From assembly GCA_963760615.1 (NCBI GenBank), contig CAVXDX010000003.1:1-64000 (forward strand): DNA of 64,000 nucleotides. The letters are read 5' to 3'. The DNA is from an uncultured Candidatus Micrarchaeota archaeon. Lineage in GTDB: Archaea; Micrarchaeota; Micrarchaeia; Burarchaeales; Fermentimicrarchaeaceae. Each line of letters begins with the position of its first letter. The stretch's first letter is position 1. The position numbers and the translations under genes are program-made. Below, piece after piece: positions 3,713 to 18,678 of the stretch. A model generated the notes under the pieces. That model was given only the letters and a program-made list of their open reading frames with translations. It was not told where the DNA came from and searched no databases.

Positions 3713-6700
3713 GCGCCTGTAACGCGGTACCTCACTGGGTATCAACTTACACACACATTCACCGCTATCGGAAACTACTCATGGTATTGCAACGGAACTG
3801 ACCCCAACTTGAAATATGCACCCGCCAATGCGTCACCAGAAAACTATGAGATAAAAGTATTATACTGCAACATGCGCTGGGTCGCCTCCCCAGCCGCCCC
3901 AACAGATTTCAAAACAATCCCAACAAACCACTACGCGCATGTGGTTAACCAGTCAGTGGCAGTCGCTTTATTGGTCACAGATGCCTCGGGAGCCCGCATG
4001 CCGGGTATTAGCGTTAACATAACAGCTTGGGGTTTGCCCGGCTCTCCAAGCGCGGTGGTGCTTTCAGATGCTAGTGGAGTTGCCAATGCATCATTTCTTC
4101 TCCCGCTAAACATCGGCATGTATACTCCACTCAATGCAACCCCTCCGATATGCCCTGGTGGGGTAGCCACCGCACCTGCAGAACCATCAACATATATAAA
4201 TGCCTTCCACGATGTTCCCTACTCCATAAACGTCACTACTCCAAAAACCCTGTTGCTGGACGTTGGAGATCCTTACATCATATCTATTGAGATTGAGGAC
4301 AAGTACGGGAATATATGCAACAGCTCATTTGACGGTCCACCGTACAAAACTTCCGGTGCATTCCCCAATTACGATAAAACTATAGCAATAACCCAAACCC
4401 TCAGGAATTCTACCGATACATGGGTCTATTCGCCAGGAGTGTGCACCATAATCTCCCCCAGCCCATGCTATGCGATTTTCAATGCATCGATGGAGGGTAA
4501 GTACACCTTCAACTTCCAGGCCTACACATGGAATGCAACAGTAACCATTGACAACATAACCAACTACATAGAGGAGGTCACACTGGCTTATGACACTAAC
4601 CCTATTAACCCTCCGTGGCATCAAGGTATCGCGACATCAACTTTCACTCCCACCAATGGGTTGAAAACAGATTCAGTTTTTGTAAAATACAAAAAGCCCA
4701 TAGGACCACTGCCAATTATCAAAGTCATCGCAAACCCGCACCAGATAAGCGTTAATGATTCATTCAATTTAACCGTGCAGGTAGTCCTCTCCAATGGGAC
4801 AGTAGATACTAGCAACAATCACATGGTTGAGATAGACAGACTTGCGCGTCTTGACGTCCCCCAGATCACATGGGCAGTGATAAACGGTAGCGTCCAGCTA
4901 ACCAATGGAGAGTCGACGTTCAATATCACCTCGACCAAATCATTCGATTTCTTCAATATAACAGGCATATACAGGTTATACGCCAAGGATCTAGCAGACC
5001 CTACGATAAACGGCGCCGGCACGCTGATTGTTGGCGCATCAGGAATAGACCACGTGAATGTCTACGTCGACCACCAGGGAGTTTTCAAGACTCTGCCCTT
5101 CTATGTTTACGTTACCGTGCAGGATGTGGCGAACAATACCGTGACAAACTTCACAGGAGAGGTGAACATAACCTGCCCGCCTCTAGCGACCTACCCGACA
5201 TTCGAGACGGCATACCTGTTGCCGGTCGATATGGGTACGACCAATTTCACATTCACTGCGAACCAGAGCGGCACAATCTGGTGCAATGTTTCTGTTTATG
5301 ACTCGGTCAACAAAAGACTAATAGAAGATAATTTCAGCGTGCTCGTTTTGGAACCAGACATGTGTACTTCCTATGCCATACCCCCAGTGGCTACGCTAAC
5401 CCCGCCTTTTGATATACAAGTCGGCTCAAACACCACCCCACCAATCACAGATATAATGAATCACAATTACCAGATAGGCTCCCAGCTGATAGGATACGAC
5501 TCCGCAACTGGACAGATGAAGGGTAACTATAGCATATGCCTTGAGAGCTATCACAGCGGCAGGATGTGTGTCAACTCTACAGACATACAGTTTGACAAGG
5601 CGCCAATCTCCGTCTGCGTCAAGGAGTTCGTCTACAACCCCGAATCCGATGGCCGCATCTCTGACCACATCCATTACAATGGAACTGCTGATCTCGAGGA
5701 AACTTTCAAACACCCAGAAATTGTCTGGGGCTGGGGTTATAATGCCTCCAGCGGCACACTCTCAAACTGCTCCATGACTGGGAATGACAAATATGCAGTA
5801 ACCATGACGCCTGGTCCGCTTTATACGGATTACTTCAATGTGACTGTCAACCTGCCTCTGGGAGTGCTCCAACCCTACAACATAACCAATGATTCGGTGC
5901 TCAACCCCCAAGAGCTGCGAGCTCCGGAAGCTCTTCTTGTGGCGGACCAGAGAAATAACGGCAGACTCGCAAAGTTCACTTTAACCCCTCCGGCAAAATG
6001 GCTTGAGGACTACACCCCAAACATTGTCGGAGCCAATGCCCAGGCGCTTGCCTATGACAACAGGGGAAACATATTCGTGGCGCTTTCAAACACGTCAAAA
6101 ATACTCGTCGTGAGAATGACCCGCTCGTACCCACCTACAATTAGTTTTGTGAAGGAGATAGATACCATAACGCCAAATGGAATGGTCTTCCGACCTTATG
6201 GATTGGACACAGACACCTGGGGCAACCTCTATGTAGTAGGCAACACAAACCCAGACCAGCCGGATAACCGAATGTGCATAAACAAGTACAACAGGACATT
6301 TAGTTTAAACGACAGCAACAACTGCTGCGGTCCTCTTGATGCAGATGGCAACTGCACGGAGAAGTACTATGGAACTGTGCCGAGCATAACCGTGGATGAG
6401 GCCGGCAGTGAAATCTTCATTGTAAGGGACAAGAAGTGGACCTGTAGCTGGGGATTATGCTACTGGATAGGGAACCCCCTCATCTACGAGTATAACGCCT
6501 CAAATGTCAGCCAGAACGTTGGGAACAAAAGCATATTTGGAGACGGCGGTTCGGGCTTCACACTGTGGGGCAACAACCCCAATGAGAATATAACCGATGG
6601 CGTCTGCCTAAGCTTTGCGAACGACCCTGCCAATCCCACACTCGGTCCTGAATACGACAACGCTGACCATCACTTCCTGAGAGGAGTAAAGATGAGGAAA

Positions 6701-9700
6701 GGCTACCTGTACGTTCTTGATTATATGACGCTTCCCCACAGAGAATGGACTGACATGCTAGGTCCTTCAATAGCAGGCAGCTGCCTGGCATGTCCACCAT
6801 GGGCGATTGTTCCTTGCTGCGAAGGGTGCGCGTTACCTCTCAGTCTAGCGTACCCCGATGAATGCAACAACTGCAAGGATGCTGCTTACATAGAGAACCA
6901 GGTGACCAGGCTCCTAGTATTCGATATAGCAGACAACCCTGATGGACATTACAGAGCAAGAATAACTGTTGAGCCAAACACAACAGTCATGACGCAAGGC
7001 ACCAAGGATTTCTTAACCGGCTGGGTAATGCCCCCCACCCATCCGGGCCTTCAGACCTGTGATAGTCTTGGGGGTATCTGTACAGGGCTGACATACTTCA
7101 CACACGGGATGGATGTTGATGGGAACTTCAATGTATACATAGCGCTGAAAGGCAAGAACAATGCCATTGTTCACTACAAACTTAACATAATGCAAGCAGA
7201 CCCCTCTCTAAACTACCCCGGCGGTTCCTACTCATTTGATGTAATAAATGGCTGGCTGCCGGACATGTCAAACCCTGCCGACATTTATAAAACAAGAACT
7301 CTGGGAAGCTGGACTGACGCTTCGCACCCCTATGGTAGTGTGACTGACAATGTCACAAGACCTGACGGCGTGATAGGCTATGCTGACATGATAAAAACAT
7401 CCATGATGGCGGGAGTCTCCTGTGAGGGATGCTCACTGCAGGGTTCTGTCGAGCCGAGCGTATGCACAACGCAGATTTCGCAGACAAACGCCAGCCAATC
7501 ACAGAACATAAACGCATCACTGGCGGCAAGTAACATCGTTCCCGGAACCCCTGTCATAAATGTTCCACCCGGGCAGCCGGCAGTTTACAGGAGAAATTCC
7601 ATATCCACAAACATAACGGCGTTCCTGAGGTTTGATTACCAATTTAAAATAGACCAGTATGCCAATAATATCGATTGCGGAGGAGGCTCAAGTGCATTGA
7701 CTGGCACTCAAACAGTAAATAAACAACTCAATGTCACAAGCTACAGCAATAACCTGGAGCGGCTGGTTGAGGGGGGCGGGCAGTTCTTAGCGCTCACAAC
7801 GCCCAACTACCCTGAGAAGCCTGTCAGACCACCAGATACTCTGCCCTACCTGGCATATAACTACTACACAAACAGGTTCTTCTACAAGCACTACGCCATG
7901 ATGGATAATACATCAAGTGGATCCGGCAACCTGAATGTGATGGGCCCGCCTCCTAACAATTTCTGGCAGTCGCCTGGTCCTCTAGCCTACCCTGGTGCAT
8001 GGTGCGCTTTATTCCCAGATGCATGCGCCAGTCCCGATACAAAGGAGTGGATACTGAATGCAAGCTACAGGAAAACATTCCAGATATTTCAGAATGAATA
8101 CTACAGCTACCAGTACCTCTCCACAACTCCAACAGTGGGAGAATACCAAGAGCAGACTCCCCTCTATGGACTGAAAGCGTCATGGGATGCTGTAAGGGGC
8201 TGGCTTGACGACCCCAATGCGGCACGATACTTCAACCCAGACATAATCAGCACCTACGCACCTGGCACGATACCCCTCAACAACACCATAAACTGGACGT
8301 ACCCATTCGCCTATGTGTTTACTCCAGTAAACCTTGTTCCCAACCCACTTCCATTCACACCCCAACCTGCCGCTGACCATATCTTTATTGCATCAACGAA
8401 TGTTTCCCTGCTCCAGCTCTCCATAATGTGCAAAGATAGTGCAGCGAACGTTCGTACATATGTTGTAACCGTCACCAATCTCAGCTGGGTCTCCCTGGGG
8501 AGCTGTGAGGAAATAGATGGTATAGCAATCAGCGGAGCATCGGATGAAGCCTCACTCTTCATTAAGCCACAGGATCTGCCAGATAGCGAGGGCATATGCT
8601 TTGAAAAAATGGGTGGGTATAACAGCACGCTCTGCAGCACCACAAGAGCATGGTTCAAGCAGTCAATACAGCCCAATACAGTAATCTCCTACATAAGCAA
8701 TCAAAATGATATATCCATGTCAACACGCTACCCGCTTTTGAACGAGCCCGACACCCCTTGGCCGGCATCTCTAAAGCTTGTGCCGGTAAACATGAGCGGT
8801 CCAACAGTTCTAACACTCCATGGGGTGAATAACACCATTATGCCAAATGGCCAATTTGGTCAGATATCTGCTACTGCAAATCTTGGTGTCAGGGAACTCT
8901 ACAATCCACTACCGTTTAACCTGACTGACCACTCAATATACTTCAAATCTGATGCTGATGTCTCAATGGCCTTACTAGGATGGGATCCCATGGCGGGAGC
9001 GTGGAATACCAACGTAAACTACCAAACAAGTTCCGGGTGGTTGCTTATAGCAGGAATAGGAACACCTTACAATGTAGGCGAAATGTATAGTATACGCAAT
9101 ATAAAATGCTCAGATCCGCTAGGCTGTCTCTTCCAGTTCGCAAATGACTCTGCAGGGCAAAAAATCATAGGCGAAGCCTACATTGCTCCGAATCACGATT
9201 ATATTAGTTCTTCCCTTGACGGAATCTATAGATACCCCCAGACCACCTACTCTGTATCAAAAGGTGAGGTGCAGTTCTCTCCAGATGACCCCATGAACAG
9301 AGATTTTAGGGAGATACTATCCATCAGCGGCAAAGGATACCTGGGAGACAGGTTCAATGTCTATACAGACCCGGATGCACTCATACGCATAGATAACCTC
9401 TCTGCCGGAGCATGCATAACTTGCGCCACTGATGCTGACTGCCCCATGGGCATAACCTGTGTGGCTGGGCTGTGCAAAATAGATACCTGCAGAGTAGCAA
9501 TGCATCCCTCAGGGCCACCCTGCCCCCCATCATTCGTTTGCCCAAGGATAGACACATCCGCACTCAACGAAACACTTGAAGTTAGTTCGACTAAGGACCA
9601 CAGCGTGAATGCAACAACTGTAACAATTGTCGGTACAAGAGCAAACGATCCCAACTTTGGTCTCATCAGTGATTCTGCAACCCTCACTGTAGGGCCTAAC

Positions 9701-18273: not shown

Positions 18274-18678
18274 ATGATGGATGAAGATTCAGAGCGTGCT
18301 GTGCTAAAGAGGAAGCTGAGGAGGTCCATAGACTACTCTGACCTCCTGCTTGCCTTAAAGAAGCCATCCACGATATACGAGGCGCACGACATATCGGAAA
18401 TAACCATCAGAAAGCTGAAGCTGCAGCTTTTGCTCAACTCACTCCTCCTTGAGGAAGCAAAGGACAAGGGAGAAAAAAAGAAGCTTGGGGAGGAGAGGAA
18501 GGAGCTGCAGGATGAACTCATTGTGGAGTTTGAGGAAGGTATTGACATCCTCGCCACTCTTGCAGCAAACATGAGGATGGATGGCAAGGAGGACATTGCA
18601 AGGCAGTTCGAAATTCTGAGGAATGTTAGGGAGAGCGAGTTGAATGAGCTCAAAGGTGGCGGAGCAGGCCCACGTTGA
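18274..18678 (+). CDS. Small charged helical hypothetical protein (134 aa)
   Basis: ORF 22 nt downstream of the giant coiled-coil gene on the same strand; Leu/Glu/Lys helical pattern. Confidence 0.7.
   Translation: MMDEDSERAVLKRKLRRSIDYSDLLLALKKPSTIYEAHDISEITIRKLKLQLLLNSLLLEEAKDKGEKKKLGEERKELQDELIVEFEEGIDILATLAANMRMDGKEDIARQFEILRNVRESELNELKGGGAGPR

Follow-up and report, generated by a model that had tools for sequence, protein, structure and literature searches.

The window analysed here is the whole 64,000-nt stretch with which contig C3 begins (window position 1 is base 1 of the contig). On balance, and with confidence only slightly better than even, its three genes 1-3 are taken as the distal module of a ~31-kb, vertically inherited T4SS/Ced-like cluster of Micrarchaeota, in which gene 1 would be the binding arm, gene 2 a scaffold or tether and gene 3 a cytoplasmic component.

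Contig start and complete structure of gene 1

1..3713, no strand: artefact of assembly (foldback), repeating 3754-~7460 from the 5' part of gene 1 in reverse complement and with many errors
3714..3732, no strand: loop or junk bases at the foldback centre, without a match to the arms or to contig C6
3733..11974, plus strand: gene 1, 3' 8242 nt of the 9882-nt gene (3293 aa with C6:25972-27611)

An earlier note on this DNA let gene 1 begin at position 3713, which is wrong, as the position falls in a foldback assembly artefact rather than in genuine genome sequence. Since positions 1-3713 are an inverted copy of a later stretch (BLAST, 85.7-90.6% identity with 138 gapped positions), 3713 is no gene start. 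More than half of the indels between the two arms lie in homopolymer context, the ORF list holds no ORF of at least 110 aa within 1-3800, and contig C13 has a 5' foldback of the same type. The arm match stops exactly at 3713 and a match to contig C6 starts exactly at 3733, where the genuine sequence begins. The ORF of gene 1 within the window was listed as 3809..11974 (+) with TTG as the first listed start, in a frame open from 3689. C6 ends in 369 nt that match 3733-4101 at 100% identity and in the same frame; gene 1 therefore continues from the 3' end of C6, which contributes its 5' 1640 nt, and the joined gene encodes an N-terminal signal peptide. The joined protein aligned with its G001 homologue without a break across the C6/C3 junction.

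Gene 1 as a probable surface protein

5933..7375, plus strand: predicted NHL/YWTD-like beta-propeller of gene 1 (~P0001 residues 709-1189; AF2 and Foldseek)
10775..11971, plus strand: conserved membrane-proximal region and C-terminal anchor of gene 1 (56-65% identity, five relatives)
about 11870-11926, plus strand: transmembrane (TM) segment of gene 1, followed by the basic tail KRKFNK

The signal peptide of gene 1 is followed by variable modules in the N-terminal part, by Ig-like repeats of 97 aa, a beta-propeller and Cys-rich stalk modules; the TM anchor is C-terminal. Its N-x-S/T sequons number 86 where 41 are expected, and the Cys count of gene 1 is likewise 86. The proposal of an exposed adhesin or surface protein thus gained support from the sequon excess, the Cys-rich composition, the signal peptide and the anchor, and gene 1 is probably an exported, disulphide-rich surface protein with predicted N-glycosylation. 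Pfam returned only sub-threshold Big_3_5, Big_1 and SBBP matches. AF2 modelled P0001:520-1420 with pLDDT 70-90 in two blocks (model residues ~190-460 and ~510-670); the best domain-level Foldseek matches were the NHL propellers 6xg7/6d69 (TM by target 0.64), Brat NHL 1q7f and BtuG-type surface lipoproteins. In this model, an NHL-like propeller lies in the central region. A profile of the last 450 aa matched proteins of G007 and G008 (E about 1e-35).

The combination of signal peptide, C-terminal anchor and a high number of sequons is typical of archaeal surface-layer glycoproteins. Gene 1 fits this description, and it could instead be an S-layer-like or coat glycoprotein, with gene 2 as a membrane-attached cytoskeletal tether, both lying beside secretion-like genes without working with them. 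The giant PKD/propeller proteins of Ca. Mancarchaeum acidiphilum Mia14 have been described as surface-layer proteins (PMC5498576), and archaeosortase-family genes are present in the genome. This general envelope function is nevertheless considered rather unlikely, for the family is very narrow (17 matches of the best-conserved 900 aa in 1.84 billion representatives) and the N-terminal 500 aa differ among close relatives, which suits a variable binding protein better than a lattice.

Gene 2: composition and topology

11967..18251, plus strand: gene 2, 2094 aa, probably 2089 aa from ATG 11982
12051..12371, plus strand: conserved core of gene 2 (residues 29-135), with TM ICFPFFLLLALL..., juxtamembrane motif QGKSPLVGFDIS and a Gly-rich basic stretch
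17418..17570, plus strand: second hydrophobic hairpin of gene 2 (residues ~1818-1868), Lys-flanked on both sides
17571..18248, plus strand: lineage-specific C-terminal domain of gene 2 (motifs HFTGRGSG and GLPWYIR, alignment A1)

Gene 2 encodes a signal peptide, then the highly conserved TM core (61-89% column identity, 14 homologues) and then ~1770 charged, helical residues. The designation as a coiled coil holds in part: a crude heptad score covered 32% of gene 2 versus 17% (maximum 24%) in shuffles, but Pro residues break the body every 30-150 residues. No internal repeats were found in it. The C-terminal domain, detected only in genera g1 and g2 (4/301 genomes), was modelled poorly by AF2 (pLDDT 47.7).

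The compositional contrast between the two giant proteins is plain and recurs in three relatives. While the sequons of gene 1 are in excess, gene 2 has 10 against 8.3 expected and merely 2 Cys; the ectodomain of the 797-aa protein encoded upstream of gene 1 has 17 against 6.2. Homologues of gene 2 in other families begin with a signal peptide and an ectodomain of ~190 aa, after which come the shared TM motif, basic residues and a tail of ~1600 aa, and the residues after the TM of gene 2 are likewise basic. Because the ectodomain of the homologues precedes the TM and the tail follows the basic residues, gene 2 is most likely a type I membrane protein with a cytoplasmic tail, a topology that we infer from composition and the positive-inside rule. 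As its tail would be cytoplasmic, gene 2 is read as an internal scaffold or tether and not as an external rod.

The membrane-spanning rod or bridge envisaged before would make gene 2 an extracellular or envelope-spanning coiled coil (translocator- or tape-measure-like) that bridges to a host together with the adhesin, with gene 3 as its chaperone. DPANN cells do form connections with hosts (PMC11329633), and gene 2 does have features that such a rod might show: a signal peptide at the N terminus, hydrophobic segments towards either end and a helical body of great length. The body of gene 2, however, lacks the sequon or Cys enrichment of its two demonstrably exported neighbours, the TM comes after the signal peptide, and basic residues both follow this TM and flank the C-terminal hairpin on either side. 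Together with the separate ectodomain before the TM in homologues and the absence of any PHROG tape-measure match, these features make the rod improbable.

The homologue P0013 in Ca. Fermentimicrarchaeum limneticum is named by NCBI as an SMC-type protein, and gene 2 is indeed long, helical and charged. A role in chromosome segregation is contradicted by the lack of ATPase head domains and the presence of membrane segments: neither SMC_N nor any P-loop domain was detected in gene 2 by Pfam or NCBIfam, a PDB profile search gave coiled-coil noise only, and the signal peptide, TM and second membrane hairpin are all in place, so that SMC identity deserves almost no credence.

Gene 3 and the downstream genes

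18274..18678, plus strand: gene 3, 134 aa, helical, K/E-rich
18679..21907, no strand: strain-specific insert of ~1 kb non-coding sequence, a 161-aa gene and a 486-aa TPR gene (minus strand; Pfam TPR)
21908..22420, plus strand: cc170, a 170-aa K/E-rich coiled-coil protein
22430..23641, minus strand: HerA/CedD-like P-loop ATPase of 403 aa, convergent neighbour (Pfam DUF87 2.8e-11)

Gene 3, in which both signal peptide and TM are absent, is read as cytoplasmic. It has only 15 close homologues, occurring in 4/5 genomes of g1 and 1/1 of g2 but in none of the others among 41 relatives. The C-terminal domain of gene 2 has the same narrow distribution, which is essentially that of one clade, whose members are kin and not independent. 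A homologue of cc170 is the fourth gene in G001 and G006, ~60-75 nt after gene 3, and no similarity was found between cc170 and gene 3. Export signals are absent from gene 3, cc170 and the extra coiled-coil genes of G008, which also argues against the bridging rod with gene 3 as chaperone.

Gene packing and the surrounding cluster

The three co-oriented, tightly packed ORFs, which end at 11974, 18251 and 18678, agree with the three-gene operon that had been proposed. This description is too narrow, because gene 1 starts only 31 nt after the 797-aa gene and relatives have a fourth small coiled-coil gene, and the trio belongs to a larger cluster. The 22-nt gap between genes 2 and 3 was given correctly. 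The 8-nt overlap of genes 1 and 2 would apply if ATG 11967 were the start of gene 2; a 7-nt gap is more likely, since the start of every homologue corresponds to the second ATG (11982, residue M6) and the protein is recorded in the database with 2089 aa. The corresponding gaps in relatives measure 9-21 nt, and the two genes are tightly packed under either start codon.

The cluster, which is chromosomal and vertically kept, runs from pilin-like genes, six polytopic membrane paralogues, two bitopic proteins and a VirB4/CedB-like ATPase through small proteins, the 797-aa two-TM glycoprotein and genes 1-3 to cc170 (where present) and the convergent HerA/CedD-like ATPase. In the small pilin-like proteins, two hydrophobic helices accompany a signal peptide. 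Neither a relaxase nor a coupling protein was seen among the genes of the cluster. Its ATPases contain Pfam DUF87, AAA_10 and TraG P-loop domains above cut-offs, and NCBIfam models of the CedD, CedB and VirB4 types were their best matches, far below cut-offs (for the 403-aa ATPase CedD at 4e-8, HerA and CedB, none of them near its cut-off). The link to HerA/VirB4-type ATPases suspected in the earlier note was strengthened by the position of the VirB4/CedB-like operon, directly upstream of gene 1 on C6, and of the HerA/CedD-like ATPase, a conserved convergent neighbour with syntenic copies in G001, G002, G003 and G006. The membrane double-AAA ATPase, also suggested as an energy supply, fell away: the protein at 60994-63804 is of the Cdc48/Vps4 type, stands over 40 kb from the trio and is not linked to it.

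Conservation across Micrarchaeota

In all five relatives that have the genes (5/5: G001, G002, which is Ca. Fermentimicrarchaeum limneticum, G003, G004 and G006), the trio is linked and syntenic, and the order ATPase, 797-aa membrane protein, genes 1-2-3 is kept; the gene order is therefore more than chance, and the earlier proposal was not refuted on the count of linkage. Linkage of the trio to the VirB4-like operon is confined to family f1, and in seven other genomes, what follows the ~800-aa protein is encoded on the opposite strand. The phyletic pattern of the gene 2 TM core is wider. Profile A3, whose score derives partly from hydrophobic composition, matched 88 of the 301 Micrarchaeota genomes sampled; every matching ORF that was not truncated by the end of a contig had a length of roughly 1000-2700 aa. 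At 19 loci from outside the two closest genera, the gene-2-like ORF abuts a Cys-rich 450-1640-aa protein in 16 cases and the six-paralogue membrane array in 11. The 8 of these 19 loci at which it is not beside the array favour the general envelope function of genes 1 and 2 weighed above, against which stands the recurrence of adjacency to the array or the VirB4-like operon in several families and in both gene orders. From the spread of the profile in giant ORFs and from these six-paralogue and Cys-rich neighbours, we infer that the gene 2 core belongs to the secretion-like machine. No family match was obtained for any of genes 1-3 in Pfam, NCBIfam, PHROG or PDB, so their place in the machine is argued from gene neighbourhood alone; similarity of genes 1 and 2 to anything outside Micrarchaeota was not found.

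In the favoured reading as a distal module of this cluster, gene 1 would be fixed in the membrane by its C-terminal helix, and the variable tip modules, Ig-like repeats and NHL-like propeller would form an outward-facing binding arm. Gene 2 would be produced beside it, tightly coupled, as a type I membrane protein with an ectodomain reduced to a few residues. The TM/juxtamembrane core of gene 2 may dock in the membrane with the machine or with the gene 1 anchor, and its ~1770-aa basic helical tail would lie in the cytoplasm, tied back to the membrane by the second hairpin and ending in the lineage-specific domain, with which the putative small cytoplasmic helical protein of gene 3 co-occurs. 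Such an arrangement would imply physical contact among the proteins and might serve contact with a host or partner cell.

Comparison with known systems

In Gram-positive conjugation, aggregation substances of the PrgB type (pCF10) are large wall- or membrane-anchored adhesins that are encoded in the same operon as the T4SS and bring cells together. They are bacterial, much smaller than gene 1 and differently anchored, and we know of no homology between them and gene 1, nor of a giant cytoplasmic partner.

The Ced system of Sulfolobales, Ted DNA import and bacterial conjugative T4SS, as described in the available parts of PMC9905601, PMC11868833 and PMC11823120, resemble the cluster in its VirB4/CedB-type and HerA/CedD-like ATPases, its small pilin-like proteins and its array of polytopic membrane proteins. 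The cluster differs from them in ATPase scores far under the equivalog cut-offs and in being without a relaxase or coupling protein. Counterparts of genes 1, 2 and 3 are not detectable in the systems covered there, and the same parts of these sources present no Ced or T4SS machine with a ~3300-aa surface protein and a ~2100-aa cytoplasmic-tailed partner.

Within the same phylum, Mia14 has large, strain-specific surface proteins with PKD, Kelch/YVTN beta-propeller and CARDB modules, which were proposed to function in cell-cell interaction (Golyshina et al. 2017, PMC5498576). By description, they are like gene 1 in being very large secreted proteins with Ig-like and beta-propeller modules, whereas the modules of gene 1 escape Pfam models, and PMC5498576 describes neither a paired giant partner with a cytoplasmic tail nor a link to a VirB4-type operon. 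In the reinterpretation by La Cono et al. 2023 (PMC10266531), the giant "SPEARE" proteins of Nanohaloarchaeota unite an Ig-like ectodomain and a TM with a VirB4/TraG ATPase in the cytosol and a coiled coil, and an action on the host was proposed for them. Common to them and to genes 1 and 2, as read here, are the DPANN setting, a giant exposed portion that is anchored in the membrane and has Ig-like modules, a TM, a cytosolic coiled coil and the tie to a VirB4/TraG-type ATPase; SPEARE is one polypeptide with the ATPase fused, while here gene 1, gene 2 and the ATPases are separate genes.

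Corrected Model of Gene 1

The analysis yields a corrected model of the giant surface protein gene (gene 1), its physical link to a VirB4-like operon, a cytoplasmic reading of the giant membrane protein behind it (gene 2), and a transmembrane (TM)-core marker found across the phylum. In the ORF listing, the trio occupies three frames in one orientation (3809..11974, 2721 aa from the first TTG; 11967..18251, 2094 aa; 18274..18678, 134 aa). As deposited, the first ORF lacks a signal peptide and window 1-3800 is nearly ORF-free, both of which follow from window 1-3713 being a foldback copy. 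Repeat scans identified 1-3713 as the reverse complement of 3754-~7460, with arm pieces sharing 85.7% and 90.6% identity (BLAST) and 138 gapped positions; over half of the indels occur in homopolymer context, and the palindrome sits at the contig end, the window being bases 1-64000 of contig C3. This is the non-biological signature of unpolished foldback chimeric long reads. Readings of position 3733 as a true hairpin, as a telomere or as an invertible segment were rejected, since homopolymer indels set the arms apart, the left one is ORF-less, the site is at the contig start, the collinear 5' end of the gene is present on another contig and the relatives are collinear.

The missing 5' end was located on contig C6, whose terminal 369 nt are 100% identical to window 3733-4101. 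An ORF running off the end of C6 (ATG at C6:25972) is in frame with the window, and the joined gene 1 encodes 3293 aa with a typical N-terminal signal peptide and aligns with the 3522-aa homologue of the related genome G001 without a break at the C6/C3 junction. The gene start at 3713 proposed in the earlier note is thus withdrawn, as it lies at the edge of the foldback copy. The C6/C3 break falls exactly on a 291-nt tandem repeat coding for a 97-aa Ig-like module. The repeat covers L007:19322-19981 of the C6 locus (C6:27321-27980) and window 3733-3859, and its copy number may have been collapsed in the assembly. Users of the deposited contig should be aware that the 3.7-kb foldback at its start truncates gene 1 and conceals how it connects to the operon upstream. 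Another foldback palindrome at a 5' contig end was observed at C13:286-7950 of the same genome (98% identity over 7.7 kb), which doubles an archaeosortase-family gene (C13:2532-3308, plus strand, and C13:4901-5677, minus strand) and probably belongs to the same class of assembly artefact.

The Gene Cluster and Its Synteny

With the junction restored, the main features of the cluster are as follows.

L007:12422-13951 (contig C6), same strand as gene 1 and ~4 kb upstream of it: 509-aa VirB4/CedB-family ATPase
C6:25972 to the contig end, continued at window 3733-11974, plus strand: gene 1, giant surface protein
11967-18251, plus strand: gene 2, giant membrane protein
18274-18678, plus strand: gene 3, 134-aa protein
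21908-22420, plus strand: 170-aa coiled-coil protein
22430-23641, opposite strand, downstream of gene 3: 403-aa HerA/CedD-like ATPase

Gene 1 starts 31 nt 3' of a gene whose 797-aa product has two TM helices and an ectodomain rich in sequons. On the same strand upstream of that gene, C6 carries genes for a 275-aa coiled-coil protein, a Zn-ribbon protein with two TMs and the 509-aa ATPase, and further upstream for two bitopic proteins, six tandem polytopic paralogues and small pilin-like proteins. The 509-aa ATPase matches the Pfam DUF87, AAA_10 and TraG P-loop profiles, all above cut-off; its best NCBIfam matches are CedD, CedB and VirB4-like CD1110, far under the equivalog cut-offs. A VirB4/CedB-family ATPase, one mark of a type IV secretion (T4SS)/Ced-like system, is therefore present within the cluster of the trio. 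The six multi-TM paralogues and two small proteins bearing a signal peptide and two TMs each, also part of the cluster, gave no Pfam match. As a side observation, the homologue of this ATPase in G006 is a 1050-aa open frame (G006:C2:186487-189627) with a ~1.5-kb in-frame insert near Walker A, query residues 1-75 and 58-509 matching on either side; the insert may be an intein.

When the ATPase, the 797-aa protein and genes 1-3 were each searched for across whole genomes and the results combined with ORF maps, G001, G002 (Ca. Fermentimicrarchaeum limneticum Sv326), G003, G004 and G006 proved to share a single order: the ATPase, small genes, a ~800-aa protein, the homologues of genes 1-2-3 and a convergent HerA-like ATPase. 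The linkage of the three genes, which the earlier note had made one of the points on which its operon proposal would stand or fall, accordingly holds in all five genomes, where the gene 1 homologues measure 2700-3522 aa and those of gene 2 1758-2023 aa. G001 and G006 carry an additional 164-170-aa coiled-coil gene between the gene 3 homologue and the convergent ATPase. In the window, gene 3 is parted from the corresponding 170-aa gene by a strain-specific 3.2-kb insert (18679-21907) consisting of ~1 kb of ORF-free sequence, a 161-aa gene and a gene for a 486-aa TPR protein on the minus strand; the ORF-free part is the repeat-rich stretch 19146-19462 noticed earlier from the sequence alone. A bacterial promoter and terminator scan 3' of gene 3 gave nothing usefully above shuffles and is uninformative in an archaeon. 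Outside family f1, the genes past the ~800-aa protein switch strand in the seven genomes examined, so the trio is tied to the VirB4-like operon in a family-specific manner.

Gene 1, a Giant Surface Protein

Gene 1 encodes 86 Cys residues and 86 N-x-S/T sequons against 41 expected. Its Pfam matches, Ig-like (Big_3_5, Big_1) and SBBP, are all sub-threshold, no ATPase domain was found with Pfam, and the whole-protein profile retrieved coiled-coil noise or nothing from PDB sequences. A search of 1.84 billion representative proteins with the best-conserved 900 aa of gene 1 found 17 relatives, every one of them a giant. An AF2 model of this region is confident in its beta-rich core only, for which Foldseek returned NHL/YWTD-type propellers and propeller surface lipoproteins. 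The N-terminal ~500 aa are present in the window's genome and G001 and missing from G002 and G006, while the last ~450 aa and the anchor, a TM followed by a basic tail, are kept family-wide. Signal peptide, sequon excess, beta modules with a propeller and C-terminal anchor are the features by which archaeal surface (S-layer-type) glycoproteins and adhesins are recognized, and the build of gene 1 is that of a variable surface binding protein, its binding being putative. Giant surface proteins of PKD/propeller type are reported in the micrarchaeon Mia14 (PMC5498576), and gene 1 resembles them. The C-terminus (window 11870-11971 and homologues) shows a conserved motif YAGG...G.F..LEP ahead of the TM and KRKFNK, which, with the archaeosortase-family genes of the genome, could constitute a sorting signal of an undescribed type.

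Gene 2, a Giant Membrane Protein with a Helical Tail

Gene 2 has 14 full-length homologues, all from Micrarchaeota and none with a Pfam domain, with conservation maxima at residues 31-120 (61-89%) and 1800-2040. The N-terminus consists of a signal peptide (…SFA|SMGD…) followed immediately by a TM helix with the motif QGKSPLVGFDIS; as the homologues begin at the position of M6, ATG 11982 is the likely start. A net basic stretch of ~1770 residues, with 23% K+E and 2 Cys, follows the TM; sequons are in no excess in it (10 observed, 8.3 expected), as in three relatives. A second hydrophobic hairpin at ~1818-1868 is flanked on both sides by Lys. In homologues from other families, a signal peptide precedes an ectodomain of ~190 aa, and the same TM motif is followed by basic residues and a tail of ~1600 aa. 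Taken together, the N-terminal layout, the composition, the Lys-flanked hairpin and these homologues are most economically explained by a type I topology in which the tail is cytoplasmic. The description of gene 2 as a very long coiled coil is partly upheld: heptad patterning is real but partial, at 32% compared with 17% in shuffles.

The database name of the G002 homologue, SMC chromosome segregation protein, was rejected, as neither Pfam nor NCBIfam gave an SMC_N, hinge or P-loop match and a signal peptide and TM segments stand where the ATPase heads and hinge would be expected. A phage tape-measure protein or translocator was likewise discarded, with no PHROG match and no tail genes nearby. 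Pfam revealed no ATPase domain in gene 2, and profiles of its N-terminal and C-terminal parts found coiled-coil noise or nothing among PDB sequences. The best scores of the Atlas search were ≤0.86, to unnamed clusters with low recognition, and none of the three genes matched PHROGs or NCBIfam. The AF2 model of the C-terminal region (14 sequences) had a mean pLDDT of 47.7, too poor for a fold search. In a sister genus (G008:C5, L027/L028), the gene-2-like protein reaches 3877 aa and is followed by three large K/E-rich ORFs (1619, 1023 and 594 aa) without TM or signal peptide, which look like an expanded set of cytoplasmic coiled-coil proteins.

Gene 3

Gene 3 encodes a helical, K/E-rich protein of 134 aa without an export signal, has close homologues only and shows no similarity to the 170-aa coiled-coil protein. 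Matches to the profile of the gene 2 C-terminal domain are limited to genera g1 and g2, and the gene 3 profile is matched in these very genomes and, among 41 relatives, nowhere else. This co-distribution, within a single clade, suggests that gene 3 partners the C-terminal domain of gene 2. When gene 3 and residues 1290-2094 of gene 2 were submitted as alignments for complex prediction, the score was 0.00, which is no answer and counts neither way.

Distribution across Micrarchaeota

In an all-against-all comparison, the TM region alone was common family-wide, the tails being kept within subclades only, and the search for loci related to the TM-motif alignment recovered five close relatives only. 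When 301 genomes sampled evenly across the phylum were scanned with the TM-core profile of gene 2, 88 gave a match, and the matching ORFs are roughly 1000-2700 aa long unless a contig end cuts the frame. The TM core was not found in families f13 (0/74) and f17 (0/54), although both have the ATPase. The core is thereby a phylum-wide marker, usually accompanied by a Cys-rich surface protein. In a neighbourhood survey of gene-2-like genes at 19 loci from other genera, the motif ORF adjoins the six-paralogue array in 11, either divergent from it or after it, and is directly flanked, before or after, by a same-strand Cys-rich protein (450-1640 aa) in 16. The pairing of a Cys-rich exported protein with a motif-bearing giant is thus the conserved unit, of which genes 1 and 2 are the version in this genus. 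The gene 1 C-terminus profile did not detect the Cys-rich partners in other families, so that homology between gene 1 and these partners is unproven.

Related Systems and a Proposed Mechanism

The trio's cluster has the motor in common with Ced/Ted and bacterial T4SS, and possibly the channel and pilin; nothing resembling genes 1-3 occurs in those systems. Searches of Pfam, NCBIfam, PHROGs, PDB sequences and the Atlas revealed no homology between genes 1-3 and any component described for T4SS or Ced, and the literature search found no published tie of Micrarchaeota to VirB4-type systems. Judged from gene neighbourhood, the trio may be an accessory module of a T4SS/Ced-like system, with putative DNA or protein transfer. 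The closest published parallel to genes 1-2 is provided by the nanohaloarchaeal SPEARE giants, in which, on a published re-reading (PMC10266531), an Ig-like ectodomain and a TM are combined with a VirB4/TraG ATPase in the cytosol and a coiled coil. SPEARE is one polypeptide, an architecture that neither gene 1 nor gene 2 has, whereas the same kinds of parts lie here on separate genes and are unrelated in sequence. Pfam found no domain in five gene-2-like proteins from other families, and hence no hidden ATPase as in SPEARE.

From the observed anatomy, synteny and composition of the trio, we infer its contacts and function as follows. Gene 1 would project outward and bind the partner surface via its variable tip and propeller. 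Gene 2, made in step with gene 1, would be seated in the membrane by its conserved core, which probably contacts the gene 1 anchor and/or the polytopic array. Its long basic helical tail would lie in the cytoplasm, re-anchored by the second hairpin and ending in the domain that gene 3 may serve. The two flanking ATPases, VirB4/CedB-like upstream and HerA/CedD-like downstream, would be the obvious motors of the whole cluster.

On a broader reading, genes 1 and 2 would be two halves of a Micrarchaeota-wide transmembrane coupling device, with a variable outer binder, paired anchors and an inner tether, positioning or gating a VirB4/VirB6-like channel at the host contact site; we regard this as rather unlikely. 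At 0.15 nm per residue, ~1700 tether residues in one fully extended helix would reach ~250 nm, by estimate on the order of the cell diameter. Cryo-tomography of a related DPANN archaeon has revealed structures that form connections and, on the symbiont side, a docking complex (PMC11329633), for which a coupling device of this kind, if real, would be a candidate. In one genus, a variable giant of the cell surface and a membrane-anchored, presumably cytoplasmic giant are encoded directly behind a conjugation-type motor, which bears on how Micrarchaeota and other DPANN attach to hosts and take up host material, and offers nameable candidates for tagging or proteomics in cultivated micrarchaea.

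Other Features of the Window

Elsewhere in the window, 43043-45706 encodes an 887-aa protein with an N-terminal DUF333 and a papain-family (Peptidase_C1) domain, which may be an exported protease. At 57090-57192 on the minus strand, Rfam placed a second tRNA of 103 nt adjoining tRNA-Asp; it was not reported by ARAGORN and probably contains an intron.
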